From Candidatus Shapirobacteria bacterium (GTDB taxonomy: Bacteria; Patescibacteriota; Microgenomatia; UM-FILTER-40-11): DNA of 64,000 bases. Position 1 is the first letter of the stretch. The number at the start of each line of letters is the position of its first letter. The stretch covers positions 104,301-168,300 of the forward strand of contig JAGVBK010000002.1 in NCBI GenBank assembly GCA_020059745.1. Direction: 5' to 3'. Positions 14,360 to 62,194 of the stretch are shown here, one piece after another. The notes beneath the pieces were generated by a model, which was given only the letters and a program-made list of their open reading frames with translations, was not told the origin of the DNA and ran no database searches. Both the position numbers and the translations under genes were made by a program.

Positions 14360-16528
14360 TTGATGGACAGAAACCAAATGACTGGAGAAGAATTACCTTT
14401 CTCATTGATTGAGATCCGTTTACCTAAATCAAGCGAAAAAACCCCGGAAGCGGCGGCTCAGCTTTTTGCGGCCTTTTCCTCCCTTCCTAAAAAGTCTTTT
14501 TTGTCTTTTAAACCTCCAGTAAGCATTTGTTTTGAAATTGTTTGTGTTGACCAGGTCGTCCATTTTCTCATTTCCTGCCCTAAGGAAATGAAAGGTTATG
14601 TTGAAAGCCAGCTTTCTGCCCAATATCCGGAAAGCATCCTTCTGGAAATTCCCAAAGATTATCTTGCCGGCTACACCCAAAACTCAAACCCAAACCTGGG
14701 CCAGCTTACTTTATCAAACAGCTTTTATCTGCCTTTGCGAACCTATAAGGAAGTTAAAGACTCTGATCTTATTTCTTCTGTTTTGGGCGCTATGTCCAAA
14801 GCCGGGCCGGAAGATTTTATGGCTATCCAATTTATTATCGCCCAAGCCGGTAACTGGCAAGGCTATGCCCAGGGAATCATTGACAGAGGAATCCCCTCAG
14901 GAGAGGAAGGAAAAACTCTTCCCCACCCCCAGGCAAAACACATTGCTGAAAAAATAAGCAGCGGTGGCTTTTGGACCGCCATAAGAATCATTGCCAGTTC
15001 AGAAGAACTTCTAAGAAATATTTCCAATTCCTTTTCTTCCTACCAAAGCGATGTCAATGGCTTAAAACTTAAAAAAATAAGCCCGAGAAACAAAAAAAAG
15101 CTGCTTGAATCTTGTCTCAAAAGGTCTTTCGAAATGGCTCCTGCTAACCAGGTTCTTAACCTTGACGAGCTCGCTTCTCTTTGGCACCCTCCATCAAAGC
15201 ATTTGTCGGGCATTAAAAACATCATGTGGACACAAACCATTATGAGTGAGCCTCCCCTAAACCTGCCTACAGCAATCGACCTTAATGAAGCTGACAAAAA
15301 AGAAATCAATTTCATAGCCCGGACTGAGCATAAAAACAAGGTGGCAACCTTTGGCATTAAGAAAAAAGACCGTAGAAGGCATGTTTACATTATCGGGAAA
15401 AGCGGTACCGGAAAATCAACTTTAATTGCCAATATGGCCATAAACGACTTAAGGAACCGGGAAGGTCTGGCAGTTATTGATCCTCACGGCGATTTAACTG
15501 AAATTCTTTTGGATTATATTCCCTCTTTTAGGATAAACGAAACTTGCTATCTTGACCCGAGCGACACCGCCAACCCTTTTCATCTTAATCCCCTTGAGGT
15601 TAAAAACCCGGCCCATAGAGAACTTGTGGCCTCGAATATTGTCGCCATTTTTTATAAGCTCTACCACTATTCCTGGGGGCCAAGGCTTGAATACATTTTA
15701 AGAAATACAATCCTGACTTTACTGCAAACCCCGCAGCCAACACTTCTTCAGATTACGGAAATGCTTTCCAATAAAAACTTCAGGAAAAGAGTGGTTGATA
15801 ACCTCAATGACCCGGTCTTAAAAAGCTTCTGGGTTAATGAGTTTGAAAAAATGTCTGAAAAAATGATGAATGAAGCGGTTTCTCCGATTTTAAATAAAGT
15901 CGGCCAGTTTACTTCCTCTCCCACCATCAGACAAATTGTCGGCTCTTATCACTCAACAGTTGACCTTGAGGGTATCATGAATTCCGGCAAAGTTTTGCTT
16001 GTTAACCTTTCCCAAGGAAAAATTGGAGAAGACAATGCTGCGCTTTTAGGTGCCATGATTATTACCCAGCTTCAACTGGCGGCCATGAACAGGATTAATG
16101 TTGCTGAAGAACAAAGGAGAGATTTTTATCTTTATGTTGACGAGTTTCAAAACTTTGCCACCAGTGCCTTTGTTAAAATACTTTCTGAGGCAAGAAAATA
16201 CCGCTTAGACCTTTGTCTGGCAAATCAGTATGTCGGCCAGCTTGAAGAAGACCTGCAAAAAGCAATTTTCGGGAATGCGGGAACTTTAATTTCTTTTGTT
16301 GTCGGTGCCGGAGATGCAGGCTACATGGCCCAGGAATTCGGCCAGATTTATAAAGAAGAAGATTTAGTTAATCTGGGCATGTATCAGGTGGCAATGAAGC
16401 TTTGCATCGACAACTTAACATCTTCTCCGTTTTTGGCTACCACCATGCCTCTTCCAAGATGCAAAAACCAAAACAGGTCAAAAGTGCTTAAGGTCTCCAA
16501 GGAAAGACACACGGTCAAGCAAAAATAA
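14360..16528 (+). CDS. VirD4/TraD/TraG-like P-loop NTPase (type IV secretion coupling-protein family) with orphan N-terminal domain
   Basis: 722 aa. Walker A is IIGKSGTGKST, followed by VIDPHGD. Walker B-like is FYLYVDEFQNF, with a KYRLDLCLANQY region. The N-terminal ~330 aa have no obvious TM helices and no motif I recognise. Confidence 0.65.
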   Translation: MMDRNQMTGEELPFSLIEIRLPKSSEKTPEAAAQLFAAFSSLPKKSFLSFKPPVSICFEIVCVDQVVHFLISCPKEMKGYVESQLSAQYPESILLEIPKDYLAGYTQNSNPNLGQLTLSNSFYLPLRTYKEVKDSDLISSVLGAMSKAGPEDFMAIQFIIAQAGNWQGYAQGIIDRGIPSGEEGKTLPHPQAKHIAEKISSGGFWTAIRIIASSEELLRNISNSFSSYQSDVNGLKLKKISPRNKKKLLESCLKRSFEMAPANQVLNLDELASLWHPPSKHLSGIKNIMWTQTIMSEPPLNLPTAIDLNEADKKEINFIARTEHKNKVATFGIKKKDRRRHVYIIGKSGTGKSTLIANMAINDLRNREGLAVIDPHGDLTEILLDYIPSFRINETCYLDPSDTANPFHLNPLEVKNPAHRELVASNIVAIFYKLYHYSWGPRLEYILRNTILTLLQTPQPTLLQITEMLSNKNFRKRVVDNLNDPVLKSFWVNEFEKMSEKMMNEAVSPILNKVGQFTSSPTIRQIVGSYHSTVDLEGIMNSGKVLLVNLSQGKIGEDNAALLGAMIITQLQLAAMNRINVAEEQRRDFYLYVDEFQNFATSAFVKILSEARKYRLDLCLANQYVGQLEEDLQKAIFGNAGTLISFVVGAGDAGYMAQEFGQIYKEEDLVNLGMYQVAMKLCIDNLTSSPFLATTMPLPRCKNQNRSKVLKVSKERHTVKQK

Positions 16529-30901: not shown

Positions 30902-31789
30902 TTAATCTAGTTCTTCAAGTATATCCTCAACCCGTGTAACCAATTTGGCTCCCTTTTTAATTAAGCTCGCTGTTCCTTCAGACAAAGGAGAATTTACCGG
31001 TCCCGGCACGGCAAAAACTTCTCTTCCCTGTTCTGCTGCCAAAGAAGCGGTAATTAAAGACCCTGAATCAAGGGCTGCTTCTGTAACCAAAACTCCCCGG
31101 CAAAGCCCGCTAATTATTCTGTTTCTGGCGGGAAAGTTTGCCGGTGAAAGCTTTGTCCCAAAAGGAAACTCCGACAAAATTGCCCCTTTGTTTTTAACAA
31201 TTCTTTCTGCAAGCAATTTGTGCTCAGGCGGATAAACCCGGTCAAGCCCGCTGCCGATAACTGCAACGGTAATTCCACTGTTCTCGAGAGCTACCTCGTG
31301 GGCCACTCGGTCAACCCCGCGCGCCAATCCCGAAACAATCACCCAATTTTTTAAAACAAGTTCTTTAACAAGAGCCCGGGTTACCCTGTCGCCATAAGGG
31401 GTCATTTTCCTGCTGCCGACAACAGCTATCGTTTTCTTTCTAAAAATTTCCTTCAGGCTGGTTCTCTCTGACAATTTTACATATAAAACTGACGGTGCTG
31501 AATCAATTTCTTTTAACAAATCTGGGTAATTTTCTTCTCCGCTGAAAACTGCTTTTACCCCTTCATCGGAAAACCGAACAAAATCCGAACCAAAGTTATA
31601 TTTTTTCCTGAAGATTAAAAATTTATCGACTGTTTTTTGCGGCAAACCTATTTCTCTTAACTGTCTTTCTCCGGCATTAAAGGCTTTCTCTGCAGAACCA
31701 AAATAGTCTAAAAGAAGCTTAAAACGGACCGGGCCAATGCCCTCAAAAAGCGAAAAAGCAAGCCAGTATTTTTTTTCCCCTTCTTCCAT
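30902..31789 (-). CDS. dprA: DNA processing protein DprA
   Basis: Contains AVVGSRKMTPYG...SGLARGVD...GSGLDRVYP motifs. Confidence 0.9.
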   Translation of the reverse strand: MEEGEKKYWLAFSLFEGIGPVRFKLLLDYFGSAEKAFNAGERQLREIGLPQKTVDKFLIFRKKYNFGSDFVRFSDEGVKAVFSGEENYPDLLKEIDSAPSVLYVKLSERTSLKEIFRKKTIAVVGSRKMTPYGDRVTRALVKELVLKNWVIVSGLARGVDRVAHEVALENSGITVAVIGSGLDRVYPPEHKLLAERIVKNKGAILSEFPFGTKLSPANFPARNRIISGLCRGVLVTEAALDSGSLITASLAAEQGREVFAVPGPVNSPLSEGTASLIKKGAKLVTRVEDILEELD

Positions 31790-36270: not shown

Positions 36271-38373
36271 ATGAAACTTGATAACTTCTTTAAAAAAGCG
36301 ATTTTTTTTCTTTTTTCGGCGCTGTTTTTTACGGTTCCTCTTTTTTTTACTCCCTATAATTCTGAACTTTTTGAATTTAACAAAATTCTTCTTGTTTACA
36401 GCTTTACCGTCCTGATTCTTGGCTTTTGGCTTGCCAGGATGTTCCTTTTAAAAAAGATTGTTTTCAGAAAAACTCCGCTTGATATTCCTCTTTTTATGTT
36501 TTTTATTTCTCAGGTTGTAAGCACCATCTTTTCAATTGACCCCCATACCAGTATTTTTGGCTATTACTCCCGTTTTAACGGCGGACTGCTTTCAACCACC
36601 TCCTTTTTATGTCTTTATTGGGCCTTAGTTTCAAACTCAAAAAAGATAGATATTTTTAGGTATATTAAAGTCTCTTTTGTCTCGGCTTTGTTGGTTTCTT
36701 TTTACGGCATTTTGGAGCATTTTGGTCATTCATTTAGTTGCCTTTTTTTTGAAGGCAAGTTCGATGTCTCCTGCTGGATTCAGGATGTTAAAACCAGGGT
36801 TTTTGCCACCGTCGGCCAGCCAAACTGGCTGGCTTCTTATCTTGCTGTTTTCATTCCCGTTACTTCTGCTTTTTTTCTAAGAGCAAACTCGATAAAGACC
36901 AAAATCTACTACACACTACTTACTACTAGCTACTTTCTGTGCCTTCTGTTTACCGGTTCGCGCTCTGGCTTTTTAGGTTTTGTAGTCTCTTTAGTTTTTT
37001 TCTGGGCTTCTTTTGTTTTCTCAAGGCTAAAATACCCAAGTAAGCTAAACTCGATTATCAAGCCCTCCGTTTTCTTTGCCCTATTTTTACTTTTCATCTT
37101 ATCCTTGTTCGGCTCCCCTTTTGCTCAGATAAATCGCTATCTTCAGATTAAAAACTGGTTTCCCAAAAATGAGGCTCCGGTTCAAGCCGAAGCAGCAAAC
37201 TTAGTTGTCGAACCCCAGCTTGAGTCAGGCGGCACAGAATCAGGCATAATAAGAAAAATTGTCTGGAATGGCGCTTTGGATATTTTTAAAGCCAATCCTC
37301 TTTTAGGAACCGGTCCGGAAACCTTTGCCTATTCCTACTATAATTTCCGGCCTATGGAACACAATTTAGTTTCTGAATGGGATTTTCTCTATAACAAGGC
37401 ACATAATGAGTACCTTAACTTCCTTGCCACCACCGGCCTTGTCGGTACCGGCACTTATCTTCTTTTTATCGGGTTTTTCTTAGTATGGGGAACAAAAAAA
37501 GCCCTGAAAAGTACTGCAGATAATTTTTTGCTTTCGGTCTCTATCCTTGCTGGTTTTACCTCAATCCTGGTTGCCAATTTCTTTGGCTTCTCCGTAGTTT
37601 TGGTATCCCTTTATTTTTACCTTCTTCCCGGGTTTTTCTTTATCCTTTCAGCCGAAGAACAAGAAAATCTTAAAGTGTCAAAAATTTCCACATTTCAAAC
37701 CTTATCTTTCCTAGCCTTAGCCCTATCCTCGGTTTATCTTCTCTCTGCCGTTATTAATCTCTGGCGCGCTGATTATTATTATTCCCTAGGTCAAAAGCTT
37801 AACAAAGGCAGCGACTATGTAAACGGTTATCAAATGCTTGCCAAAGCCGTGGAAATTTCCCCTAACGAGCCTGTTTTCTTAAATGAGCTTTCCACTGTCA
37901 CTGCAAGTACTGCTCTTCTTTCATACCTTCAGAAAGATGAAAGCGCCGCTCCCCTGGCTGAGGCAGCGTTATATTATTCCGACCTTGCTCTTGAAAAAAG
38001 CCCCAAAAACTTAAATATTTATAAAAGCAGAGTCAGGGTTCTTTACACTCTTTCTCAGATTAATGAAATATATCTTGATAAAGCTATTGAAACGATTAAT
38101 AAAGCCATTAGCCTGGCTCCAACTGATCCAAAACTTGTTTACAATCTCGGCCTTCTTTACGGTCGCAAGGGCATGGTTCAGGAAGCGCTTGATACCATCA
38201 AAAAGTCAATTGAAATGAAACCAAATTATGAAGAAGCTAGAAACGCTTTGGCAATTTTTTATGAAGATTTGGGCATGAATAAAGAAGCCCTAGAGCAGCT
38301 TGAGATTATCTATAAAAACAAAAAAGACGACCCGTCACTGCTCCAAAGAATTGAAAAACTAAAAAATCTTTAA
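36271..38373 (+). CDS. O-antigen ligase-like (Wzy_C) membrane protein with C-terminal TPR repeats
   Basis: 700 aa with about 12 TM helices. It has a periplasmic loop reading AHNEYLNFLATTG and C-terminal TPR-like repeats (AIS..P....YNLG..Y...G....A). Confidence 0.7.
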   Translation: MKLDNFFKKAIFFLFSALFFTVPLFFTPYNSELFEFNKILLVYSFTVLILGFWLARMFLLKKIVFRKTPLDIPLFMFFISQVVSTIFSIDPHTSIFGYYSRFNGGLLSTTSFLCLYWALVSNSKKIDIFRYIKVSFVSALLVSFYGILEHFGHSFSCLFFEGKFDVSCWIQDVKTRVFATVGQPNWLASYLAVFIPVTSAFFLRANSIKTKIYYTLLTTSYFLCLLFTGSRSGFLGFVVSLVFFWASFVFSRLKYPSKLNSIIKPSVFFALFLLFILSLFGSPFAQINRYLQIKNWFPKNEAPVQAEAANLVVEPQLESGGTESGIIRKIVWNGALDIFKANPLLGTGPETFAYSYYNFRPMEHNLVSEWDFLYNKAHNEYLNFLATTGLVGTGTYLLFIGFFLVWGTKKALKSTADNFLLSVSILAGFTSILVANFFGFSVVLVSLYFYLLPGFFFILSAEEQENLKVSKISTFQTLSFLALALSSVYLLSAVINLWRADYYYSLGQKLNKGSDYVNGYQMLAKAVEISPNEPVFLNELSTVTASTALLSYLQKDESAAPLAEAALYYSDLALEKSPKNLNIYKSRVRVLYTLSQINEIYLDKAIETINKAISLAPTDPKLVYNLGLLYGRKGMVQEALDTIKKSIEMKPNYEEARNALAIFYEDLGMNKEALEQLEIIYKNKKDDPSLLQRIEKLKNL

Positions 38374-38419
38374 GAGACTTTTCCTTTTCCATCGTCCTGG
38401 GTTGGGGTATAATTAAACT

Positions 38420-38950
38420 ATGGCAAAAATCATCACTGTTCCTGATCCGGTTTTAAGGGAAAAATCAAAAGAAGTCTCTGTCGATAAAAAAACTCTTGAC
38501 TTGGTAAAAACCCTTAAGCAAACCATTAAAGAAAGCAAAGACATTAAAGGCGTTGGCCTGGCAGCTGTCCAGGTCGGTATTCCTAAAAGAGTCTTTATTG
38601 CTTATTCTGATGCAAGCAAAAAATTTTTAACCTTTATTAACCCGGAAATTACCTGGGTTTCCAAAAGACTGACTAACCAAAAAGAGCAAAAATTTGAAGG
38701 CTGCCTTTCCATACCTAATAAATGGGTTTTAATTAAAAGGCCAAAAGAAGTTAAGGTTAAATACCAAACCGAATCTGGCCAGACGCAAATAAGAAAGTTT
38801 TCCGGCCAAATGGCTACCGTTGTCCAGCACGAATATGACCACTTAAACGGTGTTTTGATTGTCGACCGGGCTTTGGAACAAAAAGAAAAAATTTATGAGC
38901 TGGAAAAAGACGAAAAAGGTGAAGAATATTTAAAAGAAGTGGCACTTTAA
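38420..38950 (+). CDS. def: Peptide deformylase
   Basis: Contains GVGLAAVQVG, EGCLSIP and QHEYDHLNG motifs. Confidence 0.95.
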   Translation: MAKIITVPDPVLREKSKEVSVDKKTLDLVKTLKQTIKESKDIKGVGLAAVQVGIPKRVFIAYSDASKKFLTFINPEITWVSKRLTNQKEQKFEGCLSIPNKWVLIKRPKEVKVKYQTESGQTQIRKFSGQMATVVQHEYDHLNGVLIVDRALEQKEKIYELEKDEKGEEYLKEVAL

Positions 38951-38961
38951 AGAATAAAAAT

Positions 38962-39804
38962 ATGTTTGTTTTTTTTGGCTCTTCGATTCATTCTGCTTAT
39001 TTTTTAGAATTGGGCGTAAAAAACGGCCTTAAAATTGACCTTGTGGTCTCAAACCCTCCCAAACTGCTTGGAAGAAAAAAAATCCTTACTGAAAACCCTA
39101 CTGTTTCTGCTGCCAAAAAACTTGGTATTCCCTATCTTTTAGACCTTAGGGGGTTAGAAAAATTCCAAAACCTGAAGCTGGGCTTGATTCTTGATTATAA
39201 TAAAATTATTCCCGGCGCTTTTATAGACCTTTTTGAAAAAGGCATTATAAATGTTCATTTTTCAAAGCTTCCTGAGTATCGCGGGCCTTCTCCGGTCCAG
39301 CAAACCATTCTTGACGCGAAAACCAAAGCCCATATTTCCTACTTCCTGATTTCAGAAAAGCTTGACCAGGGAAACATTCTTTTCCAATCAGAAGAAGATA
39401 TCAGTCAAAATGAAAATACAGGCTCGCTTTACCTCAAATTAACAGAAAAAGCCTCGAAAGAGATTAAAAAGATGGTTTCTAATTATCTTTCCGGCAAACT
39501 TGTCCCTCAACCCCAAAAAGGGAAAGCCTCTTATACCAAAAAATTTACTGCTGAAGACTGCAAAATCGACTGGCAAAAACCTGATGAATATTCAGAAAGG
39601 CTAGTAAGGGCTTGCTCCCCTGAGCCCGGTACCTGGACTCAAGTACGCATCGGTCCCCAAGTAAAAAGGCTTAAAATCCTTTCTGCCCAGCTTGAGCAAG
39701 GAAAATTTGTGCCTTTAGTTGTCCAACTTGAAGGAAAAAATCCGGTAATGTGGAAGCAATTCTGGCAAGGTTATCCCAATGCGGAGATTATAAAAGAAGC
39801 TTAA
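38962..39804 (+). CDS. fmt: Methionyl-tRNA formyltransferase (short)
   Basis: Contains an INVHFSKLPEYRGPSPVQ motif. It sits after def. Confidence 0.8.
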   Translation: MFVFFGSSIHSAYFLELGVKNGLKIDLVVSNPPKLLGRKKILTENPTVSAAKKLGIPYLLDLRGLEKFQNLKLGLILDYNKIIPGAFIDLFEKGIINVHFSKLPEYRGPSPVQQTILDAKTKAHISYFLISEKLDQGNILFQSEEDISQNENTGSLYLKLTEKASKEIKKMVSNYLSGKLVPQPQKGKASYTKKFTAEDCKIDWQKPDEYSERLVRACSPEPGTWTQVRIGPQVKRLKILSAQLEQGKFVPLVVQLEGKNPVMWKQFWQGYPNAEIIKEA

Positions 39805-40040
39805 GCAGTTACCGCTTTTTTTTCTTCTAAATCAGCCTGTTCTTTTTTAATTCTTTTAAGGCACTTCATACAAAGAAGCATCTGCACACCATTAATGGTA
39901 GCCGGGTGCAGGTTTGGTTTAAACACTTTGACTGTTTTTTGTGCTCTTTTTGCCCACTGTTTACCTGCCACCCCTCTTTTGTGGCGTGATTGCCTTCCTA
40001 TTTGTCTGGCTTTGGCGCAAATGAAACACTGTTGAGACAT
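39801..40040 (-). CDS. rpmB: 50S ribosomal protein L28
   Basis: 79-aa basic protein with C.IC....G......H, a KVFKPNL pattern and a second CxxC. Confidence 0.75.
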   Translation of the reverse strand: MSQQCFICAKARQIGRQSRHKRGVAGKQWAKRAQKTVKVFKPNLHPATINGVQMLLCMKCLKRIKKEQADLEEKKAVTA

Positions 40041-40121
40041 ATTTGTTTGCTTGACCTAAATTTAAGCTAAAGGTTATAATAACACAATCTTGGCTTGGAG
40101 ACAATAACTTTTTAAGGATTT

Positions 40122-40766
40122 ATGAGTGTAATTTTAACCTTACTTGGATTTATTTTTTTTATCTACTCTGTTATCGTCCACGAAATTTCCCATGGCTTTA
40201 TAGCGGAAAAACTGGGAGACCCGACAGCTAGGCTTTCCGGCCGGCTGACCTTAAACCCGCTCCCCCATATTGACCCGGTTACCAGCCTTCTTTTACCCTT
40301 ACTGCTTTTAACAACCGGCTCGCCAATAATAATCGGCGCTGCCAAACCTGTCCCCATTGATCCTTTTAATCTAAGAAATCCAAGAAAAGAAATGGGGCTT
40401 ATTGGCCTGGCGGGCCCAGCTTCAAACCTGCTTTTAGCCATTGCCTTTGGTTTGGTGGCCAGATTAATTTCTCCGGCAACCCCTTCACCCGAAATTTTCG
40501 CTTTCTTGGCCAGGCTTTCACTCATTAATATTGTTTTAGCAGTCTTTAACCTGATCCCCATTCCCCCTTTAGACGGAGGCAGGATCCTGGCGGCAATTTT
40601 ACCCAAAAACGCAGCTCAATCCCTTATGGGCCTGGAACGCATTGGCATCTTTATTGTTATTTTCCTGCTTTTATTCCCCAACCCAATCTTTTCCCTTCAG
40701 AACATAATCTTTAGTATTACCTCTACAATTTTCGGGATTATTTTTCCTTCTTTACCTGTAATTTAA
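40122..40766 (+). CDS. M50-family membrane metalloprotease (no PDZ)
   Basis: Contains HEISHG in TM1 and NLIPIPPLDGGRIL in a later helix. Confidence 0.8.
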   Translation: MSVILTLLGFIFFIYSVIVHEISHGFIAEKLGDPTARLSGRLTLNPLPHIDPVTSLLLPLLLLTTGSPIIIGAAKPVPIDPFNLRNPRKEMGLIGLAGPASNLLLAIAFGLVARLISPATPSPEIFAFLARLSLINIVLAVFNLIPIPPLDGGRILAAILPKNAAQSLMGLERIGIFIVIFLLLFPNPIFSLQNIIFSITSTIFGIIFPSLPVI

Positions 40767-41055
40767 TGCTGCTCCCCATGGCCGGAAATTAAGGTTTTTC
40801 CCTCTATGTCGCAGCATTTAATTGCTTGATTTTTGTGCCTGGGTAGGCTAGACTTTAAATAGTCCTGCCAGCAAGGCAAAGGTTTTGAAAACGCTTTTCT
40901 CTACAATTTCAATGCGTAAGGGAAAGCGAAGTTCTAAAAGAGCGTGCTTTTTTAGACAGCTTACCCACCTGGTTTTCCAGGGAAATGCGCTCAAAACCAC
41001 CTATATTGGCGGGACTTTCCACATCCAAAACCACTCTTTTCCACCCACAAAACCA

Positions 41056-41084
41056 TTTACCCTTGAGGCTTTTTAAGGTAAAAT
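41056..41084 (+). promoter_or_regulatory. Promoter of the tRNA cluster
   Basis: TTTACC (41056-41061), a 17-nt spacer, then TAAAAT (41079-41084). It lies about 20 nt upstream of the tRNA-like 5' end at 41104. Confidence 0.5.
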
Positions 41085-41103
41085 ATACATGTAAATATTT
41101 TTT

Positions 41104-41355
41104 GCCGAAGTAACTCAGCGGCCCGCCCGCCACGCAAGCCAGCTTGCTGGTGTTGCGGGCAGGTAGAGCAAATGTTTTGCCTACCCGCAGTGCTACAGCG
41201 TTGCAGGCGGGCCTGCCCACAGAAGCCTAGCCCTTCTAGCTCAACGGCAGAGCGACGGTTTTGTAAACCGTTGATCAGGGTTCAATTCCCTGGAAGGGCT
41301 CCAGTTTAGGTAGGCGGGTAAACATAGGTCGTCAGTTCAATCCTGACCGTCGGCT
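41104..41355 (+). other. Interrupted tRNA-Thr(UGU)-like gene enclosing an intact tRNA-Thr
   Basis: The 5' part (41104-41179) supplies the acceptor, D-arm and anticodon-stem 5' strand. The 3' part (41318-41355) supplies the anticodon-stem 3' strand, variable loop, T-arm GUCAG-UUCAAUC-CUGAC and acceptor. The acceptor pairs 6/7. There is a 42-nt GC-rich hairpin in the D-loop. See findings. Confidence 0.55.
41230..41303 (+). tRNA. tRNA-Thr (anticodon UGU)
   Basis: Manual cloverleaf: acceptor GCCCUUC/GAAGGGC, D-stem GCUC/GAGC, anticodon arm ACGGU-UUUGUAA-ACCGU, T-arm CAGGG-UUCAAUU-CCCUG, with an encoded CCA. Confidence 0.85.
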
Positions 41356-41403
41356 CTTGATAGTCGGTTAGTTTATTAGTATGTTAGAATTTAGTATTAA
41401 TTT

Positions 41404-41488
41404 GCCGAGATGGCGGAGCGGTCAAACGCAATGGTCTGTAAAACCATCGCTCGAAAGGGCTACGTAGGTTCGAATCCTGCTCTCGGCA
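41404..41488 (+). tRNA. tRNA-Tyr (anticodon GUA)
   Basis: Acceptor GCCGAGA/UCUCGGC, anticodon arm AUGGU-CUGUAAA-ACCAU, a long variable arm and T-arm GUAGG-UUCGAAU-CCUGC. CCA is not encoded. Confidence 0.85.
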
Positions 41489-41495
41489 CTTAACC

Positions 41496-42122
41496 TTAGA
41501 ACTTAAGAATTGAAAACTTCAGGTTCTCCCCTTCAAGCTCAAAAAGAAACCAGACCGAGTAGTCTTTGTTGTTTCTAATATACAAATTTTGCTTTTGGGA
41601 ATTAAGGCCTCCTGAAGGTACAAACTTGATTGAAGTGCCGTATTTTGAGTCAATGCCGGGAATGGCGGCAAAATCATGGTCAACCTCAGCTCTCACTTCC
41701 AAACCTGCTTCCTGGGCGGTCCAATTCATAAGAGAAGCCAGGTGACAAACTCCGTTTCCGCCTAAACCTGCCACTACTTTATAGCCATCATTAACCATAA
41801 ATCCGCTTTCTTGGGTAATTATCTTTTGCCCTTCGTATTCCGGAAGAATGTTTTTATGAAAGCTGAAAACCTCGCCAGGGTTTAGGATAATTACTCCGCT
41901 ACCTACCTTGTTTAAATAGTCTGTGGCAATAAGAATATTTTCTTTAAACCCATTACTGATGGCAGGCTCTGGATAACGGTAAGAAAGGTCAATAGATTTG
42001 GAAGCAATAGTTTCCCATTTAAAGAGATCTTTTTTCTCTTTTTGGGCCGAAACTGTGGCGTTTGCCTCACCTCTAAGTATTAAAGAGGCGACAAGTAGGG
42101 CAGAAATTATTTGATTGAGCAT
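41496..42122 (-). CDS. VanW-like domain protein
   Basis: 208 aa with a signal/TM start. The GLGGNGVCHLASLMNWTAQEAGLEV region resembles the VanW GGGVCQ motif. Confidence 0.55.
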   Translation of the reverse strand: MLNQIISALLVASLILRGEANATVSAQKEKKDLFKWETIASKSIDLSYRYPEPAISNGFKENILIATDYLNKVGSGVIILNPGEVFSFHKNILPEYEGQKIITQESGFMVNDGYKVVAGLGGNGVCHLASLMNWTAQEAGLEVRAEVDHDFAAIPGIDSKYGTSIKFVPSGGLNSQKQNLYIRNNKDYSVWFLFELEGENLKFSILKF

Positions 42123-42134
42123 TATTTATACAAC

Positions 42135-42165
42135 AAAAAAAGTGTTCTCAAAGAGAACACTTTTT
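42135..42165. terminator. Bidirectional intrinsic terminator
   Basis: AAAAAAGUGUUCUC-AAA-GAGAACACUUUUU is a perfect hairpin flanked by A-runs and U-runs. Confidence 0.7.
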
Positions 42166-42499
42166 CGCCTTACCTCAACTAAGTAAGCTGATTTTACCAA
42201 GCGCTTATAGGACAAGTCAAGGGCTTGTTTGAGGCTAATTTTGTCTAGTTTTAAAACAATTTTCTTTTCGTCTCCTCGCGAATATGAATGCTGGCTTTTG
42301 ATGCCTTTTATTTTAGTCTTCTATGTAAACAAAAATTTACTTTTATTTTGTTACTATGAGATACTTTACAAATATTTTCTTTAATTTGTTTGAGTAAAAT
42401 ATTTGCTCTATACCATACTAAAGAATAAATTTTCACCTCTCTTCTTTTTTGTATTTACTTGTTCCCAAAAATGCTGAAGTTTGCTAAAATTACTAGACT

Positions 42500-42573
42500 C
42501 GCCTAAGTAGCTCAGTCGGTAGAGCATTCCCTTGGTAAGGGAAAGGTCTCGGGTTCGATTCCCGACTTAGGCT
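42500..42573 (+). tRNA. tRNA-Thr (anticodon GGU)
   Basis: Acceptor GCCUAAG/CUUAGGC, D-arm GCUC-AGUCGGUA-GAGC, anticodon loop UUGGUAA and T-arm with UUCGAUU. Confidence 0.85.
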
Positions 42574-42654
42574 CAAGGCTAAAAACCGCTAGAAAGCTTT
42601 TAAAAGGCTTTTTAGTTTTAAATTTGATATAATTCCATCTAGAAAGGAAGAAAA

Positions 42655-42825
42655 ATGGCTAAAGGACAAAGAATGATGCTTGGTTTTGCTTGCTCTGTTT
42701 GCAAGAAACTGAACTACTTAACAGAAAAAAACAGGACTAACACTCCTGATAAATTGGTATTGAAAAAATTCTGCAACACCTGCAAAAAAGTAACTGACCA
42801 TAAAGAAAGCACCAAATTTAAGTAA
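42655..42825 (+). CDS. rpmG: 50S ribosomal protein L33
   Basis: 56-aa ORF, below the ORF-track cutoff: MAKGQRMMLGFACSVCKKLNYLTEKNRTNTPDKLVLKKFCNTCKKVTDHKESTKFK. It has two CxxC pairs and the usual position upstream of secE-nusG. Confidence 0.85.
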   Translation: MAKGQRMMLGFACSVCKKLNYLTEKNRTNTPDKLVLKKFCNTCKKVTDHKESTKFK

Positions 42826-42839
42826 ACCGAAAAACTAAA

Positions 42840-43301
42840 TTATTTCTTCTCCGGAGGTTCTGGATATTTTAAAAATTTTGTTTTCTCCCTGTTAACCTTT
42901 AATGTTCTGGCGTGTCTTCGCCCATCAACAGGGCACCTAAGCTCAGAAAGCACTATTGCCATTGCCGGAAGTTTTTCCCCTCTCTTTATAATTTCCCTGG
43001 GCAGTTCAACCCCCTTTTCTGTTTCAAAGCCAATGATAAAATTATTGTAATAAAGAGGGCCTTGACAGCGTCTGCATCTTTTAGGTTCTCCCGAAGTCTC
43101 TCTTGCCGGGATGTCGCGGCCAAGGACAAACACATCGCTGTGCCACTCTTCAATTTCATTTTTACGGGCTTTTGGGGAATTTTCAGGGTGTCTTGGGTGA
43201 GGCTTAGGGAGGATCGGTGAAGAATATTGGACCTCAAAACCAGGCATAGTCATCTGCCCAAAAGAAGAATGTCCTTCAAGTATTAATTCCTTTACAGACA
43301 T
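42840..43301 (-). CDS. Hypothetical protein with CxxC...C.VDG Zn-ribbon-like element
   Basis: 153-aa ORF with no recognised family. Confidence 0.4.
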   Translation of the reverse strand: MSVKELILEGHSSFGQMTMPGFEVQYSSPILPKPHPRHPENSPKARKNEIEEWHSDVFVLGRDIPARETSGEPKRCRRCQGPLYYNNFIIGFETEKGVELPREIIKRGEKLPAMAIVLSELRCPVDGRRHARTLKVNREKTKFLKYPEPPEKK

Positions 43302-43416
43302 ATCCTATATTATACACGAAAGTATCAAGTTTTACCTTAAAACGGCAATCTTTGAATATCTTTTGTGATATATAGCAATCTTACTGTAACAGTTTGCTTT
43401 TGCTAAAGTCAAGAAT

Positions 43417-44208
43417 TTAAAAAATAAAGTGGCCGGCATCAAAAAATACAAATCGGTTAGCCAGATAAAGATGTGAGTTGAGCATGCTTTCCACCACTTC
43501 CCTGTCTCTTTCGCTGCTGCCAATGTAATAAGTAATGTCCGGACCTACTTTTTCTATCATTCCGGCCAAGTCCTCACCTGCCGAACCTATAGGTTTATTG
43601 GGAACCACCAAGAGCTTGTCTTTCCCCAGCCTTTCCAGCCTTCTTACTGTATCATCGTCTATAAAAGGAAAATAGCTAATTGGCCCCCGAAAAGGCTCAG
43701 CCAGTTTTCTTAGTGGTCCTACTTTTTGCAAGGTCTCGTCAGAAAGATAAAAACGGCTGCTCCAAAAAATTGTGAGATCAGAAGCTTTTATTATCCTGGC
43801 AAAAGCCAAGGCTGTTTTTTGGCTTATCTTGCCTCTTTCTTTTGCCTCTCCAAAAGCTTTTTTAATAGCAATTTCACCGTTAAAAACACCGTTTACCACC
43901 TCGTGTAGGGTGTGGGCCGGACTGACAAAAACACCGTCAAAATCAGTAATTGTCAGCACCTTACATTCTCCGCCCTGTCCCAGTACTCCTGACAGCATTC
44001 TTTCCGAAGAGGTGAACTCGTTTAGGTTAACTCTTCTTCCCAACCTTAATCCAAGAAGGCTTCTGTCAAGAACGCTATTAAGATTGGGAACACCATTGCC
44101 GTCATAAATAATCCTGCTCTCCGCCCCTATCCTTCTAATTACCCTTCTGCATTCTTCTGCCCGGCCAAAACAAGGGACAGTTGGGTTAATAAATGTTTCA
44201 ACAGACAT
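43417..44208 (-). CDS. HAD-superfamily hydrolase-like protein
   Basis: The ITDFDGVF motif (HAD motif I, DxDxV) lies mid-protein. The start is taken at MSVETF, immediately after the galU stop. Confidence 0.45.
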   Translation of the reverse strand: MSVETFINPTVPCFGRAEECRRVIRRIGAESRIIYDGNGVPNLNSVLDRSLLGLRLGRRVNLNEFTSSERMLSGVLGQGGECKVLTITDFDGVFVSPAHTLHEVVNGVFNGEIAIKKAFGEAKERGKISQKTALAFARIIKASDLTIFWSSRFYLSDETLQKVGPLRKLAEPFRGPISYFPFIDDDTVRRLERLGKDKLLVVPNKPIGSAGEDLAGMIEKVGPDITYYIGSSERDREVVESMLNSHLYLANRFVFFDAGHFIF

Positions 44209-44210
44209 TG

Positions 44211-45110
44211 TTAGTCTTGAAGTTTTTGCTTCAACCAAATTTTAAAGTCTTCTCCAAACTTAGGGTTTTCTATGCCCAGTTCGACTAAGGTCTTAAGATA
44301 ACCATACCTATCTCCTGTATCAAAAAAGCGGTAGTTTTGATATTCAACCGCATAAACTTTTCTGCCGCCGGCAAGCTGGCCTTTTATACCGTCAATATAA
44401 TAAAGCTCTCTTTGTTCTTCAATTTCTTTGTCTGCTTTTTTAAGATATTCAAAAATGTCCGGAGTAAAAATCTGGCCAGACATGGTTGCCAGGTCAGAAG
44501 GAGCCTGGCCTACACCTGGTTTTTCAATCACATCGCTGACTTCTATAACTCTTTCTTTTACTTCTTCTCCAACTGCAAATCCAAACCTGGCTCCATCTTC
44601 GGGGTTTCCGGTTCTGATACAGCCTAAAACCGTTCCTCCGTATTCATTGTAGACCTCCAAAAGCTGAGTAACCCTGCCAGGGCTGGCTTTATAAAACTCA
44701 TCGGCAAACAAAAGCAAAAAAGGCTCGTCGCCAACAAGTTCCTGGGCAGAAAGAATGGCCACACCGGTTCCCCTTCTTTTTCCTTCTTTTTGCAAACAAA
44801 AAGAAAACTTAGCCATTTGCTCAATTTCCTTAAGCTCATTTAAATAGTCTTCCTTACCTCCTTCTGCAAGCACCTTGTTTAATTCCTCAAAGGGCTCAAA
44901 ATGCCTTCTAATTTCCTGGGTAAAAGGAGAAAGCACAAAAATCACTTCTTTTATGCCTGCTTCAACCGCTTCCTCGGTCACATACTGAATAATCGGCCTG
45001 TCAATAACCGGAAACATGATTTTTGGAACCGCTTTGGAAGCAGGAAGAAAACGGGTACCAAACCCTGCCGCCAAGATAACAGCTTTGTTAACTTTTTTAA
45101 TTTCTGACAT
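44211..45110 (-). CDS. galU: UTP--glucose-1-phosphate uridylyltransferase
   Basis: Contains the KAVILAAGFGTRFLPASKAVPKIMFPV N-terminal signature. The start is taken at MSEIKK, avoiding overlap with the upstream gene. Confidence 0.8.
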   Translation of the reverse strand: MSEIKKVNKAVILAAGFGTRFLPASKAVPKIMFPVIDRPIIQYVTEEAVEAGIKEVIFVLSPFTQEIRRHFEPFEELNKVLAEGGKEDYLNELKEIEQMAKFSFCLQKEGKRRGTGVAILSAQELVGDEPFLLLFADEFYKASPGRVTQLLEVYNEYGGTVLGCIRTGNPEDGARFGFAVGEEVKERVIEVSDVIEKPGVGQAPSDLATMSGQIFTPDIFEYLKKADKEIEEQRELYYIDGIKGQLAGGRKVYAVEYQNYRFFDTGDRYGYLKTLVELGIENPKFGEDFKIWLKQKLQD

Positions 45111-45117
45111 TTTTCCT

Positions 45118-45753
45118 TTACTTGGGTTGACTATCGGGTTTAACTCTTTGAGCATAGTTTTCACTGTCTTCTTTAAGGCAAACAAAGACATATTGAGCCT
45201 TGTCAACCTCAAGATAATCGCCGGGTTTATCCGGCCTGGCAAGAGGATTGCTGTCCATATCAGTAAGTAAAACTGCCCCCCAATCCCACTGGCCTTTCTC
45301 TGTTCTGTAGCTAACTACAAACCGAACCTTAAACTCATCTTTAAAAGAAAGCGCCTTCCCGGTATCTGTTTCTTCATTAACTCTGGGAAATCTTCTGACT
45401 TTTAGCCCGATTGGGCTGCCAACTTTGTAAATTGCTGTCTTTTCAGAATATTCATCAACCGGAGTGACACTAAGCTCTCCAATTTTCTGGCCGGAAAACT
45501 TATTTGCAATTTCTTCTTTAAGCAAGGCTGTTTTTTGGCTTACCAATTTCTTTTCAGCTTCTTTTTCCAAAAGAGGGTTTTCGGGAGTCGGGAATTTAGG
45601 GGCTTCAGGGACACCTTGAGAAGCAGCTTCAAGAAATGCTTTATCTCTCTTGCCAAGCCATCTGTTTACAAATAATGCGGCTGCCCCCACGGCTCCGGCT
45701 TTTATAAGCGTTCTCCTGCCGGGGTCTTTTGGCCCTTCTCCTGTCTCGGACAT
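45118..45753 (-). CDS. Exported protein with twin-arginine signal
   Basis: The N-terminus GRRTLIKAGAVGAAALF fits the Tat motif. No other family recognised. Confidence 0.5.
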   Translation of the reverse strand: MSETGEGPKDPGRRTLIKAGAVGAAALFVNRWLGKRDKAFLEAASQGVPEAPKFPTPENPLLEKEAEKKLVSQKTALLKEEIANKFSGQKIGELSVTPVDEYSEKTAIYKVGSPIGLKVRRFPRVNEETDTGKALSFKDEFKVRFVVSYRTEKGQWDWGAVLLTDMDSNPLARPDKPGDYLEVDKAQYVFVCLKEDSENYAQRVKPDSQPK

Positions 45754-45835
45754 AAACTGATTATATTATATGGCATATTTTACATACAAGAGTCTAAATT
45801 GACTCTCTTTTTAGATTCCGTTAACATGACAAGGT

Positions 45836-46648
45836 ATGATTGATACTCATGCCCACCTTCAGTTTCCCGAGCTTTTGAGAAAAATCGAGGAGATTATCTC
45901 TCAAAGCAAAAAAGCCGGAGTTTCCGGGGTGGTTATTGCCAGCAGCAATGTCTCAGATTCCAAAAAAGCTGTCGAGCTTGCAGAAAAATATTCGGGTTTT
46001 TTATTTGCTTCAATAGGTATTCACCCGCAGAAAACAGATCCCTACAATAAATCATCAATTACCGAGCAAATTGCCAGCTTAAAGGCACTTTTAACTAAGT
46101 CTCAAGATAGCATTTTTGCCATTGGTGAAACCGGACTTGACTTTGCCCCTGCCCCGCCGGTTGAAGAAGACCGTTTGCTTAAAGATCAGGAAAAGCTTTT
46201 TATAGAACAAGTAAAACTGGCCCAAGAATTTAAGCTTCCTCTTATCCTTCATGCCAGGCAAGCCAACGACCAGCTAATTGAAATGCTTAAGCAAATTAGT
46301 GATCCTAATCTTAAAGGAGTTTTCCATTGCTATTCCGGCGGCAAAAAAAAAATTTCAAAAATTCTTGAGATTCCGGGCGAGTGGTATTTTGGCTTTGACG
46401 GCAACCTTACTTATGATCAGGGGCTTCAGACTACCATACGCTTTATTCCTGAACAAAGAATTTTAGTGGAAACAGATTCCCCCTACCTTAGCCCTGAACC
46501 TTACCGGGGTAAAGTTAATACCCCGGCTACAATTCCGATTATCGTTAAAAAAATAAACGAAATTCTCGGTAAAGATACTTCTGAGAATATTTTTGAGAAT
46601 TCAATAAAGCTTTTTAATCTTAAAAAGTTATCTAGCCATAACCCTTAG
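45836..46648 (+). CDS. tatD: TatD-family metal-dependent hydrolase
   Basis: Contains IDTHAHL, GETGLDF, ILHAR, FHCYSG and ETDSPYL motifs. Confidence 0.9.
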   Translation: MIDTHAHLQFPELLRKIEEIISQSKKAGVSGVVIASSNVSDSKKAVELAEKYSGFLFASIGIHPQKTDPYNKSSITEQIASLKALLTKSQDSIFAIGETGLDFAPAPPVEEDRLLKDQEKLFIEQVKLAQEFKLPLILHARQANDQLIEMLKQISDPNLKGVFHCYSGGKKKISKILEIPGEWYFGFDGNLTYDQGLQTTIRFIPEQRILVETDSPYLSPEPYRGKVNTPATIPIIVKKINEILGKDTSENIFENSIKLFNLKKLSSHNP

Positions 46649-61960: not shown

Positions 61961-61989
61961 TTTAAAATCAACCCCCAAAATGCTAAAAT
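61961..61989 (+). promoter_or_regulatory. Promoter upstream of the tRNA-half-like leader and tRNA-Pro
   Basis: TTTAAA (61961-61966), a 17-nt spacer, then TGcTAAAAT (61981-61989). Confidence 0.5.
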
Positions 61990-61999
61990 TCTATTGATA

Positions 62000-62084
62000 G
62001 CGAGCGTAGTTCACCCGCCTGCAAAAGCTGACGCTTTAGCGTCTGCGGGCAGGTCGGTAGAATGCACGGTTCAGCCTGCCCGCC
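62000..62084 (+). other. tRNA 5'-half-like leader with GC-rich D-loop hairpin
   Basis: GCGAGCG-UA-GUUC-A[40-nt hairpin 62014-62053]UCGGUA-GAAU-G-CACGG-UUC..., then GCCUGCCCGCC. The D-arm is near-identical to that of the downstream tRNA-Pro. No matching 3' half lies nearby. Confidence 0.5.
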
Positions 62085-62095
62085 AACAACAACGC

Positions 62096-62170
62096 CGGAA
62101 TGTAGTTCATCGGTAGAACGCTCGGTTCGGGACCGAGAGGTAGAGGGTTCAATTCCCTCCATTCCGACCA
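62096..62170 (+). tRNA. tRNA-Pro (anticodon CGG)
   Basis: Acceptor CGGAAUG/CAUUCCG, D-arm GUUC-AUCGGUA-GAAC, anticodon arm CUCGG-UUCGGGA-CCGAG, T-arm GAGGG-UUCAAUU-CCCUC, with an encoded ACCA. Confidence 0.85.
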
Positions 62171-62194
62171 GCTTCTAAATGCTAAAATAAATAA

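Follow-up and report, generated by a model that had tools for sequence, protein, structure and literature searches.

In a 64-kb stretch of the Candidatus Shapirobacteria bacterium contig JAGVBK010000002.1 (the window, to which unlabelled coordinates refer; L numbers denote related loci and contigs), an intact tRNA-Thr(UGU) gene sits inside the anticodon loop of a second, interrupted tRNA-Thr(UGU) gene. We propose that this composite arose when a resident tRNA gene was disrupted and functionally replaced by a mobile tRNA cassette, a reading to which we give a probability of about 70% on the strength of sequence comparisons. Members of a family of GC-rich palindromic elements would have broken the resident gene at the DNA level, exactly and without target-site duplication. 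One member, carrying a foreign-type, promoterless tRNA-Thr(UGU), would have landed between G35 and U36, with two cargo-less copies entering the D-loop and the site beside the cassette. The whole region would then be transcribed from the resident promoter, and RNase P and a 3' processing enzyme would free the inner tRNA, which would now decode ACA and ACG. The outer pieces and the hairpins would be discarded as a 126-nt leader and a trailer of about 50 nt, leaving the outer gene at liberty to decay.

A first-pass annotation of the locus had put forward three readings. The first, that an ancestral tRNA-Thr was disrupted by a cassette carrying its own replacement, is the one supported here by uninterrupted orthologues (L138, L085-L087), by the foreign type of the inner tRNA and by the recurrence of a 107-108-nt unit. 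The second, that the outer gene holds spliced intervening sequences, now appears unlikely and is discussed below. The third, a tRNA-like processing leader, is true only in the trivial sense that the outer 5' part forms the leader of the inner tRNA, since the sole promoter lies upstream of that part. Two features had been overlooked: a single repeat family accounts for both the D-loop hairpin and the sequences flanking the inner tRNA, and a further composite, built on tRNA-Pro, lies 21 kb away.

The nested tRNA-Thr locus

The outer pieces and the nested gene have the sequence originally described. The inner tRNA-Thr is found by ARAGORN, scores 69 bits against the Rfam tRNA model, forms 21 of 21 stem pairs and is followed by an encoded CCA at 41304-41306; we take it to be the working gene. 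In the native sequence both ARAGORN and the Rfam model report this gene alone, and ARAGORN's intron mode, proposed earlier as a check, returned the inner gene alone once more. Joining the three outer pieces yields a sequence that ARAGORN recognises as a 72-nt tRNA-Thr(tgt). Eighteen of the 21 stem pairs form in this joined molecule, with mispairs at A6.G67, A10.C25 and A27.A43, and its T-arm is perfect.

The interruption of the outer anticodon loop spans 138/139 nt (41180-41318) and contains the entire inner tRNA. It had been treated as a single insert; the interruption is real, and consists of two adjoining elements (41180-41211 and 41212-41318). The point of insertion, between G35 and U36, is set by the boundaries of the cassette in the relatives L084 and L100. 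The complementarity of GCCTACC (41179-41185) and GGTAGGC (41309-41315), which flank the inner tRNA, is confirmed. A consensus scan also recovered the predicted promoter as a sigma-70-like site. No other promoter-like site precedes the composite, and the TTTACC...TAAAAT motif of this one also stands before the resident tRNA-Thr in L084-L087 and L138.

Comparison with relatives identifies the outer gene as the older one. The locus follows the order def-fmt-L28-like-S2P protease-6S-tRNA-Thr-tRNA-Tyr-VanW, where S2P is a site-2 protease. Uninterrupted outer-type tRNA-Thr(UGU) genes occur in L085, L086, L087 and L138 behind the same promoter motif and ahead of the same tRNA-Tyr. The proteases of L085, L086 and L087 are 65-66% identical to that of the window; L138 is the closest relative, with a VanW protein 79% identical. 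The uninterrupted L138 gene reads GCCGAAGTAACTCAGTGGTAGAGTAGCTG TTTTGTAA ACAGC..., and its start (GCCGAAGTAACTCAGTGG...) matches outer piece 1 at 17 of 18 positions. The acceptor strand GCCGAAG and the D-stem strand ACTC, common to L138 and the window outer gene, are diagnostic. Since syntenic orthologues without interruption stand behind the same promoter, the outer gene is, on this comparative evidence, the ancestral resident tRNA-Thr(UGU) of a Microgenomates-like genome of the candidate phyla radiation (CPR). A search of genome contigs with the neighbouring site-2 protease gave 80 loci from many phyla at no more than 55% identity, of which L074 alone has tRNA-Thr genes nearby. The composite itself recurs, identical, in contigs from other samples, L134 (JGI 3300007354) and L135 (SRR10812145). 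This identity, together with the syntenic uninterrupted homologues, means that it is neither a chance resemblance nor an assembly artefact.

The inner tRNA has a different history. Its type (GCCCTYCTAGCTCAACGGCAGAGCG...) is that of stand-alone tRNA-Thr(UGU) genes in other CPR lineages (e.g. L092, L093 and L110), and is therefore foreign to this one. We considered a phage origin and set it aside, as IMG/VR contained no exact match to the inner tRNA core.

Palindromic elements, cassettes and their surroundings

The inner tRNA is the cargo of a 107-nt cassette reading CCTGCCCACAG-AAGCCTA-[tRNA-Thr + CCA]-GTTTAGGTAGGCGGG, in which linkers of 18 nt and 15 nt flank the tRNA. The cassette ends form an imperfect inverted repeat, not a direct repeat. 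The cassette contains no ORF, and a consensus scan found no promoter-like site within it. With the same boundaries it recurs at L084 (2081-2188) and L100 (7312-7419), the latter representing a group of eight loci from several samples, at 89-93% identity with the flanks included. The L100-group cassette occupies anticodon position 35/36, as in the window, and that of L084 lies in the D-arm of its resident gene, between TAGA and GC. The host genes have meanwhile diverged: the L084 protease is 68% identical to that of the window, and an alignment of the two outer tRNAs shows agreement at 61 of 73 positions. Such conservation of a 108-nt unit that occupies different sites in diverged genes is most plausibly explained by a discrete mobile cassette. 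Whether the unit is also an active mobile promoterless tRNA gene cassette, one that targets and replaces tRNA genes, we consider an evenly balanced question.

The cassette shares its ends with a family of short palindromes, CCCGCCYGC...GCGGGCAGG; element a, for example, starts CCCGCCCGC and finishes GCGGGCAGG. The window has two matches to CCCGCCYGC-N10-40-GCGGGCAGG, where 100 shuffles give an expectation of 0.00, and it contains four complete family elements and one truncated cassette end. Elements measure 32-42 nt without cargo and 107-108 nt with it. In an alignment of copies from the window (three), L100, L121, L095, L045 and IMG/VR contigs, the ends are invariant and the interiors vary yet remain self-complementary (GACGC/GCGTC, ATCGC/GCGAT, GTCCGAT/ATCGGAC). 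The reverse complement of element b, CCCGCCTGCAACGCTGTAGCACTGCGGGTAGG, aligns with the family, and a pairs with b in the minimum-free-energy fold because b is reverse-oriented and complementary to a.

At five insertion sites compared with uninterrupted orthologues, resident bases were neither duplicated nor lost, so that the insertions are exact and the target-site duplication that marks miniature inverted-repeat transposable elements (MITEs) and DDE transposases is missing. This fits behaviour of the repetitive extragenic palindromic (REP) or IS200/IS605-like kind better than that of a classical MITE, and the hairpin ends combined with the missing duplication recall, by analogy, REP/RAYT or IS200/IS605-type single-strand mechanisms. 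We searched the insertion sites for a common target sequence and found none. All four short elements that lie within tRNA sequence and not beside a cassette share the orientation of the tRNA. The copies in the window concentrate in tRNA genes or their relics, and elsewhere family hairpins are also seen between genes, not within a tRNA (L095 and others). The hairpin repeat family is widespread, with an apparent liking for tRNA genes. L084 is among the genomes that hold copies. In IMG/VR, the end pattern also has many matches in GC-rich contigs, most of which carry little information; the matches used were multi-copy, in AT context or near-identical. Viral-classed contigs of that database (L176, L194, L218/L172, L241, L243 and L247) carry two to five near-identical hairpins of 33-36 nt each with family ends (e.g. 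CCCGCCTGCCTCGCGTTGCGAAGCATTGCGGGCAGG), some of them with short direct repeats (e.g. GGACACAGA) on either side.

The second composite in the window, of the same design, occupies 62000-62173. Its 5' fragment, that of a resident tRNA-Pro-like gene, is broken in the D-loop by a family hairpin and is followed by a cassette-type left end and an intact tRNA-Pro(CGG), after which the sequence continues GCTT, giving CCAGCTT as in the Thr cassettes. An outer 3' half is not present. The relic's anticodon-stem strand CACGG is that of the resident tRNA-Pro in L260, an 88%-identical relative, and the inner tRNA-Pro resembles the type resident in L263. The only promoter-like sites in either composite are those upstream of the outer 5' ends. 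In a further relative, 83% identical (L261/L262, ~1290-1490), the tRNA-Pro position ahead of the DHH gene contains nothing but a degenerate hairpin-containing remnant ending ...TCTCGACCAGCTCTAAAATGC, in which no tRNA was called.

We propose that Thr lies within Thr and Pro within Pro because an insertion survives only if its cargo replaces the gene it destroys and a promoter is captured. In a genome with a single copy of a given tRNA gene, insertion into that gene would be tolerated solely with the same tRNA as cargo, and a promoterless cassette would need a promoter in front of it.

The nested architecture is also found in L084, the L100 group (eight loci), L090/L111, L129 and L123, and the break falls in the anticodon loop in 5 of 6 nested cases. 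The L123 design (2801-2990), shared with L099 (~930-1085), comes from another lineage. In it an inner-type tRNA-Thr is represented by its 5' half (GCCTTTCTAGCTCAACGGTAGAGCGACGATTTTG), a structured spacer of 70 nt separates this half from the intact tRNA-Thr downstream (GCCTCCATAGC...), and ends of the CCCGCC type are absent.

Table 1. Features of the two composites in the window and further copies of the palindromic family.
Feature	Position or locus	Strand	Description
Promoter-like site of resident tRNA-Thr gene	41056-41084	+	TTTACC-17-TAAAAT, sigma-70-like; consensus scan
Outer (resident) tRNA-Thr(UGU), piece 1	41104-41121	+	GCCGAAGTAACTCAGCGG; acceptor 5' strand, D-stem 5' strand, part of D-loop
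Element a	41122-41163	+	42-nt GC-rich palindrome, forward orientation, exactly in D-loop of outer gene
Outer tRNA-Thr, piece 2	41164-41179	+	TAGAGCAAATGTTTTG; D-stem 3' strand, anticodon-stem 5' strand, loop bases U32-G35
Element b	41180-41211	-	32-nt short palindrome, reverse orientation, adjoining the cassette at the same 35/36 site
tRNA-bearing cassette c	41212-41318	+	107 nt; family ends in reverse orientation, tRNA in loop
Inner intact tRNA-Thr(UGU)	41230-41303	+	ARAGORN; Rfam tRNA model 69 bits; 21/21 stem pairs
Outer tRNA-Thr, piece 3	41318/9-41355	+	(G)TAAACATAGGTCGTCAGTTCAATCCTGACCGTCGGCT; U36-A38, anticodon-stem 3' strand, variable loop, T-arm, acceptor 3' strand, discriminator
Promoter-like site of tRNA-Pro composite	61961-61989		upstream of composite
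Resident tRNA-Pro-like 5' fragment	62000-62013 + 62054-62074	+	GCGAGCGTAGTTCA[40-nt family hairpin]TCGGTAGAATGCACGGTTCAG
Family hairpin in D-loop of tRNA-Pro relic	62014-62053	+	40 nt, same ends
Cassette-type left end and linker	62075-62095	+	CCTGCCCGCC + linker
Intact tRNA-Pro(CGG) with CCA	62096-62170	+	within 62075-62173
Family hairpin, 37 nt	L100		T-stem of tRNA-Thr 3'-half relic
Family hairpin, 42 nt	L121		T-loop of relic
Family copy	L095		intergenic
Family copies	L018, L045		two Saccharibacteria metagenome-assembled genomes
Family copies, multi-copy hairpins	L176, L218, L241		IMG/VR contigs

The genes around the locus (def, fmt, an L28-like ORF, the site-2 protease, tRNAs and a VanW protein) have their best database relatives in Patescibacteria/Microgenomates, and the window has an overall G+C content of 41%. 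Between the protease gene and the tRNA promoter lies a conserved structured RNA (40859-41019, +) that we identify as 6S (SsrS) RNA: it gives a full-length match to Rfam RF00013 at 38.2 bits (E = 1.8e-6), under the gathering score of 46.4, and has a fold z-score of -5.3. Its CCTGCC/GGCGGG closing stem is like the cassette ends, and we considered the 6S RNA as part of the insertion system; more than shared GC-rich stems could not be shown. A second 6S-like copy lies directly downstream in L084-L087 (L086 3447-3600, 23.6 bits) and is absent from the window and L138. The ends of this second RNA (L084 ~1843-1990; L086 3447-3600), CCTGCCCAAAAGAC...CGGCAGG/GGCGGG, resemble the cassette ends CCTGCCCGCAGAAGAC...GGCAGGCGGG (41212-41229 and 41307-41318), a likeness that may reflect shared ancestry or just GC-rich closing stems. 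A 103-aa ORF on the reverse strand (40909-41220) overlaps the 6S RNA, the promoter and the composite. Public annotation of L134 and L135 lists it as a protein, almost certainly in error.

Further away, four ORFs at 42840-45753 (-) lie between tRNA-Thr(GGU) and the TatD-like gene/nusG/L1 region. Three of them (153, 273 and 211 aa) have no Pfam match, tRNA-Thr(GGU) in the window lacks its customary downstream neighbour tuf, and the segment may be an inserted island. The window also encodes DprA, which acts in DNA processing and natural transformation (30902-31789, -), and a TrwB/TraG-like coupling ATPase beside two sortases (14360-16528, +); both are plausible routes for the uptake of foreign DNA such as the cassettes.

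Probable decay of the outer gene and rival explanations

The outer gene of the window carries three insertions and three mispairs, with an intact isoacceptor inside it. Mispairs affect 3 of its 21 pairs, against 0-1 in uninterrupted orthologues, and 14 of 73 aligned positions differ from L138, compared with 1 of 85 in the adjacent tRNA-Tyr. Outer genes are truncated in three other composites: that of tRNA-Pro, the L100 group, where no outer 5' part was found in the loci checked, and L090/L111, which keep a 5' part with inserts in the D-loop and the anticodon loop and in which no 3' half was found. From the lesions and the intact inner copy we infer that the outer gene has lost its function; most probably it is an empty shell whose sole remaining contribution is the promoter. 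Decay or dispensability is likewise suggested by L129 (reverse strand, ~3260-3560 in printed orientation). Its outer tRNA-Thr has a degenerate D-arm and four or five inserts, which lie in the D-arm, the T-stem, the T-loop and the anticodon loop, the last of these containing the inner tRNA; a different hairpin family (CCCTG...CAGGATAAA) contributes two of the inserts.

Several observations nonetheless weigh against disruption and replacement. The joined outer gene is a good cloverleaf in the window and flawless in L084, and the T-stem of the window gene differs from that of L138 by fully compensated changes; both are compatible with selection having persisted for some time. The relic 5' halves examined (window Thr, window Pro, L090 and L129) all carry a D-arm hairpin. 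Relic genes thus seem to draw hairpin insertions, which simple neutral decay would not predict. Finally, we found no transposase, integrase or other mobilising enzyme among the 50 ORFs scanned in the window, the stretch to which all our genome searches for enzymes were limited.

We weighed four other explanations. The one that survives best, though we consider it fairly improbable, is that the composite is the debris of integrase-mediated integration at the anticodon loop of tRNA-Thr(UGU): an element would have brought its own tRNA-Thr, and later deletions would have removed the rest. The predominance of breaks in the anticodon loop agrees with this. Furthermore, tandem displaced 3' halves beginning at TAAACCG, each preceded by a conserved GGCRAGC..ATTKTACTGGGA motif, occur at the tRNA-Thr(UGU) of L100, L120 and L121, and such tandem 3' halves are the usual mark of an integrase having acted there more than once, at the anticodon loop. 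These halves (L100 7440-7570; L120, reverse strand, ~1830-1990 in printed orientation; L121 1120-1215) lie downstream of the tRNA gene and have T-arms of different alleles. Two have themselves been struck by family hairpins. The halves look like displaced remnants of repeated integrase-type integrations. This explanation predicts an element with an integrase and an attP site holding CCTGCCCGCAG...tRNA-Thr...GGCAGGCGGG. What is seen instead is a discrete unit of 107-108 nt whose GC-rich termini are shared by three lineages and which, in L084, lies in the D-arm; cargo-less copies have the same ends. Nor did we find a hybrid tRNA, a direct repeat of the tRNA 3' part at both ends or, among the scanned ORFs of the window, an integrase gene.

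It is improbable that the outer halves and hairpins have been retained for a role of their own, as a structured tRNA-like leader and trailer controlling the processing, stability or dosage of the inner tRNA. The full transcript does fold far better than shuffled sequences (z = -4.4), the predicted minimum-free-energy structure includes the acceptor and T-arm helices of the outer gene, and the D-arm hairpin is present in every retained relic 5' half. The stability of the fold is, however, explained by the opposite-orientation GC-rich palindromes a and b together with the two tRNAs. Different lineages moreover keep differing subsets of the outer gene, and the cassette is the sole conserved common structure.

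Splicing of the outer gene at the RNA level is likewise unlikely, and decidedly so. Here the outer tRNA would still be functional: the hairpins and cassette would be excised from the RNA and the outer pieces ligated, the inner tRNA coming free as a side product. Such a mechanism would amount to a new, protein-dependent class of bacterial tRNA intervening sequence. The corollary, that the locus yields two tRNA-Thr(UGU) species through a class of intervening sequence that is neither group I/II nor bulge-helix-bulge, we hold to be just as doubtful. In its favour, the insertions are exact, so that conceptual joins restore a cloverleaf accepted by ARAGORN, flawlessly so for the tRNA-Thr(tgt) of L084. 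The uniform orientation of the four short elements, the occurrence of interrupted designs in several lineages (with L129 the extreme case), the compensated T-stem and the apparent attraction of further hairpins to relics all point the same way, as does position 35/36, the site of Patescibacteria group I introns (PMC13011429).

Against splicing, the first and last bases of the element pair, giving a blunt helix at the junction, and inspection of all junctions revealed no bulge-helix-bulge (or relaxed helix-bulge-helix) motif. Processing by RNase P and RNase Z would not detach the flanks. We also considered a group I intron or other ribozyme. Rfam Intron_gpI gave no match at E<=1 in window 38000-46000, nor did ten further loci, composite or related, yield one at E<=0.1, and no other ribozyme model matched in the window region or in the ten related loci. 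The inserts, of 42 nt and 138/139 nt (74 nt of the latter being tRNA), are too short for a group I ribozyme core, which needs about 200 nt or more. The truncated outer genes of the L100 group, L090/L111 and the tRNA-Pro composite, the three mispairs of the window gene, the redundant intact copy and the presence of the same hairpins in intergenic DNA also count against splicing, and neither RtcB nor a splicing endonuclease was found among the scanned ORFs. In addition, a survey of 95 complete Patescibacteria genomes put striking tRNA absences (tRNA-Asn, tRNA-Asp) down to group I introns at 35/36 (PMC13011429). These points bear directly on the earlier suggestion of spliced non-group-I intervening sequences, which the data do not favour.

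Lastly, an assembly chimera or chance resemblance can be dismissed: short-read contigs of related samples break near the locus (L081-L083 and L136), but independent assemblies (L134 and L135) agree exactly, the architecture recurs in L084, the L100 group (8 loci), L090/L111, L129 and L123, and ARAGORN accepts the joined outer gene as a tRNA-Thr.

Relation to known systems and biological meaning

Disruption and replacement by a tRNA-bearing palindromic element has partial parallels in several known systems. REP sequences and bacterial interspersed mosaic elements (BIMEs), as well as Rickettsia palindromic elements (RPEs), are miniature palindromic repeats that insert into genes, RNA genes included. 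The family described here resembles them: its members are short, non-coding, GC-rich hairpins with conserved ends and variable interiors, are multi-copy within and across genomes, form clusters of opposite orientation and can sit inside genes. Unlike REP and RPE, one family member has a tRNA as cargo and the window copies are concentrated in tRNA genes and relics; insertion is without target duplication, and neither a RAYT nor another transposase was found among the scanned ORFs. Intervening sequences of bacterial 23S and 16S rRNA, including the rRNA insertions of CPR bacteria, are excised by RNase III, after which the rRNA functions as separate fragments. They too are helical extra segments in a bacterial structural RNA gene, co-transcribed with it, but a tRNA cut in the anticodon loop cannot work in pieces. 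Instead, the replacement gene inside makes the interrupted tRNA gene dispensable.

Genomic islands and prophages integrate into tRNA genes via tyrosine integrases, with the anticodon loop as one sublocation (Islander/TIGER type, PMC4383910). As with these islands, the target is a tRNA gene, the split is often in the anticodon loop, the incoming DNA keeps tRNA function and an old fragment is left behind (PMC4383910). The inserts of the composites differ in their size of 107-108 nt, their GC-rich palindromic ends, the D-arm site in L084 and the lack of an integrase and of att-type direct repeats. The cassette brings a separate, whole tRNA, whereas islands fuse a new 3' half to the old 5' half.

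Archaea possess split, multi-intron and permuted tRNA genes with bulge-helix-bulge introns (reviewed in PMC4090602). The interrupted genes described here share with them non-canonical positions (D-arm, anticodon loop and T-arm), sometimes several in one gene, GC-rich complementary segments flanking the breaks and, for the window and L084 outer genes by ARAGORN, exons that rejoin into a cloverleaf. The composite only looks like these genes: it lacks bulge-helix-bulge motifs, its bacterial host has no known splicing endonuclease, an intact tRNA lies inside and the outer genes are often truncated. Group I introns, finally, interrupt tRNA genes of Patescibacteria at 35/36 (Nakagawa et al. 2026, PMC13011429). 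The phylum is the same, as is the unusual site within the anticodon, and in both cases the interrupted gene is missed by standard finders. The insert described here nevertheless has no detected core, is far too short, contains a tRNA gene and has hairpin ends that are also found outside tRNAs. We regard the shared 35/36 site (PMC13011429) as an unexplained coincidence.

The first-pass annotation knew of no description of such arrangements in bacteria, and our literature searches returned no account of nested tRNAs, of palindromic elements in CPR tRNA genes, or of the end motifs of this family. The new aspects are a palindromic repeat with tRNA cargo and the replacement of a tRNA gene in situ. 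In practical terms, the locus gives rise to the spurious 103-aa ORF call, and the relic halves may mislead intron-aware tRNA finders. It also offers a clean natural test case for non-ribozyme tRNA splicing in Bacteria; were joining of the outer pieces at the RNA level true, the locus would be highly interesting, and otherwise moderately so. Read as disruption and replacement, it would show a route for the horizontal replacement of single-copy tRNA genes in tiny CPR genomes, by which a promoterless tRNA within a miniature palindromic element lands in its cognate gene, captures the promoter and leaves a recognisable shell.

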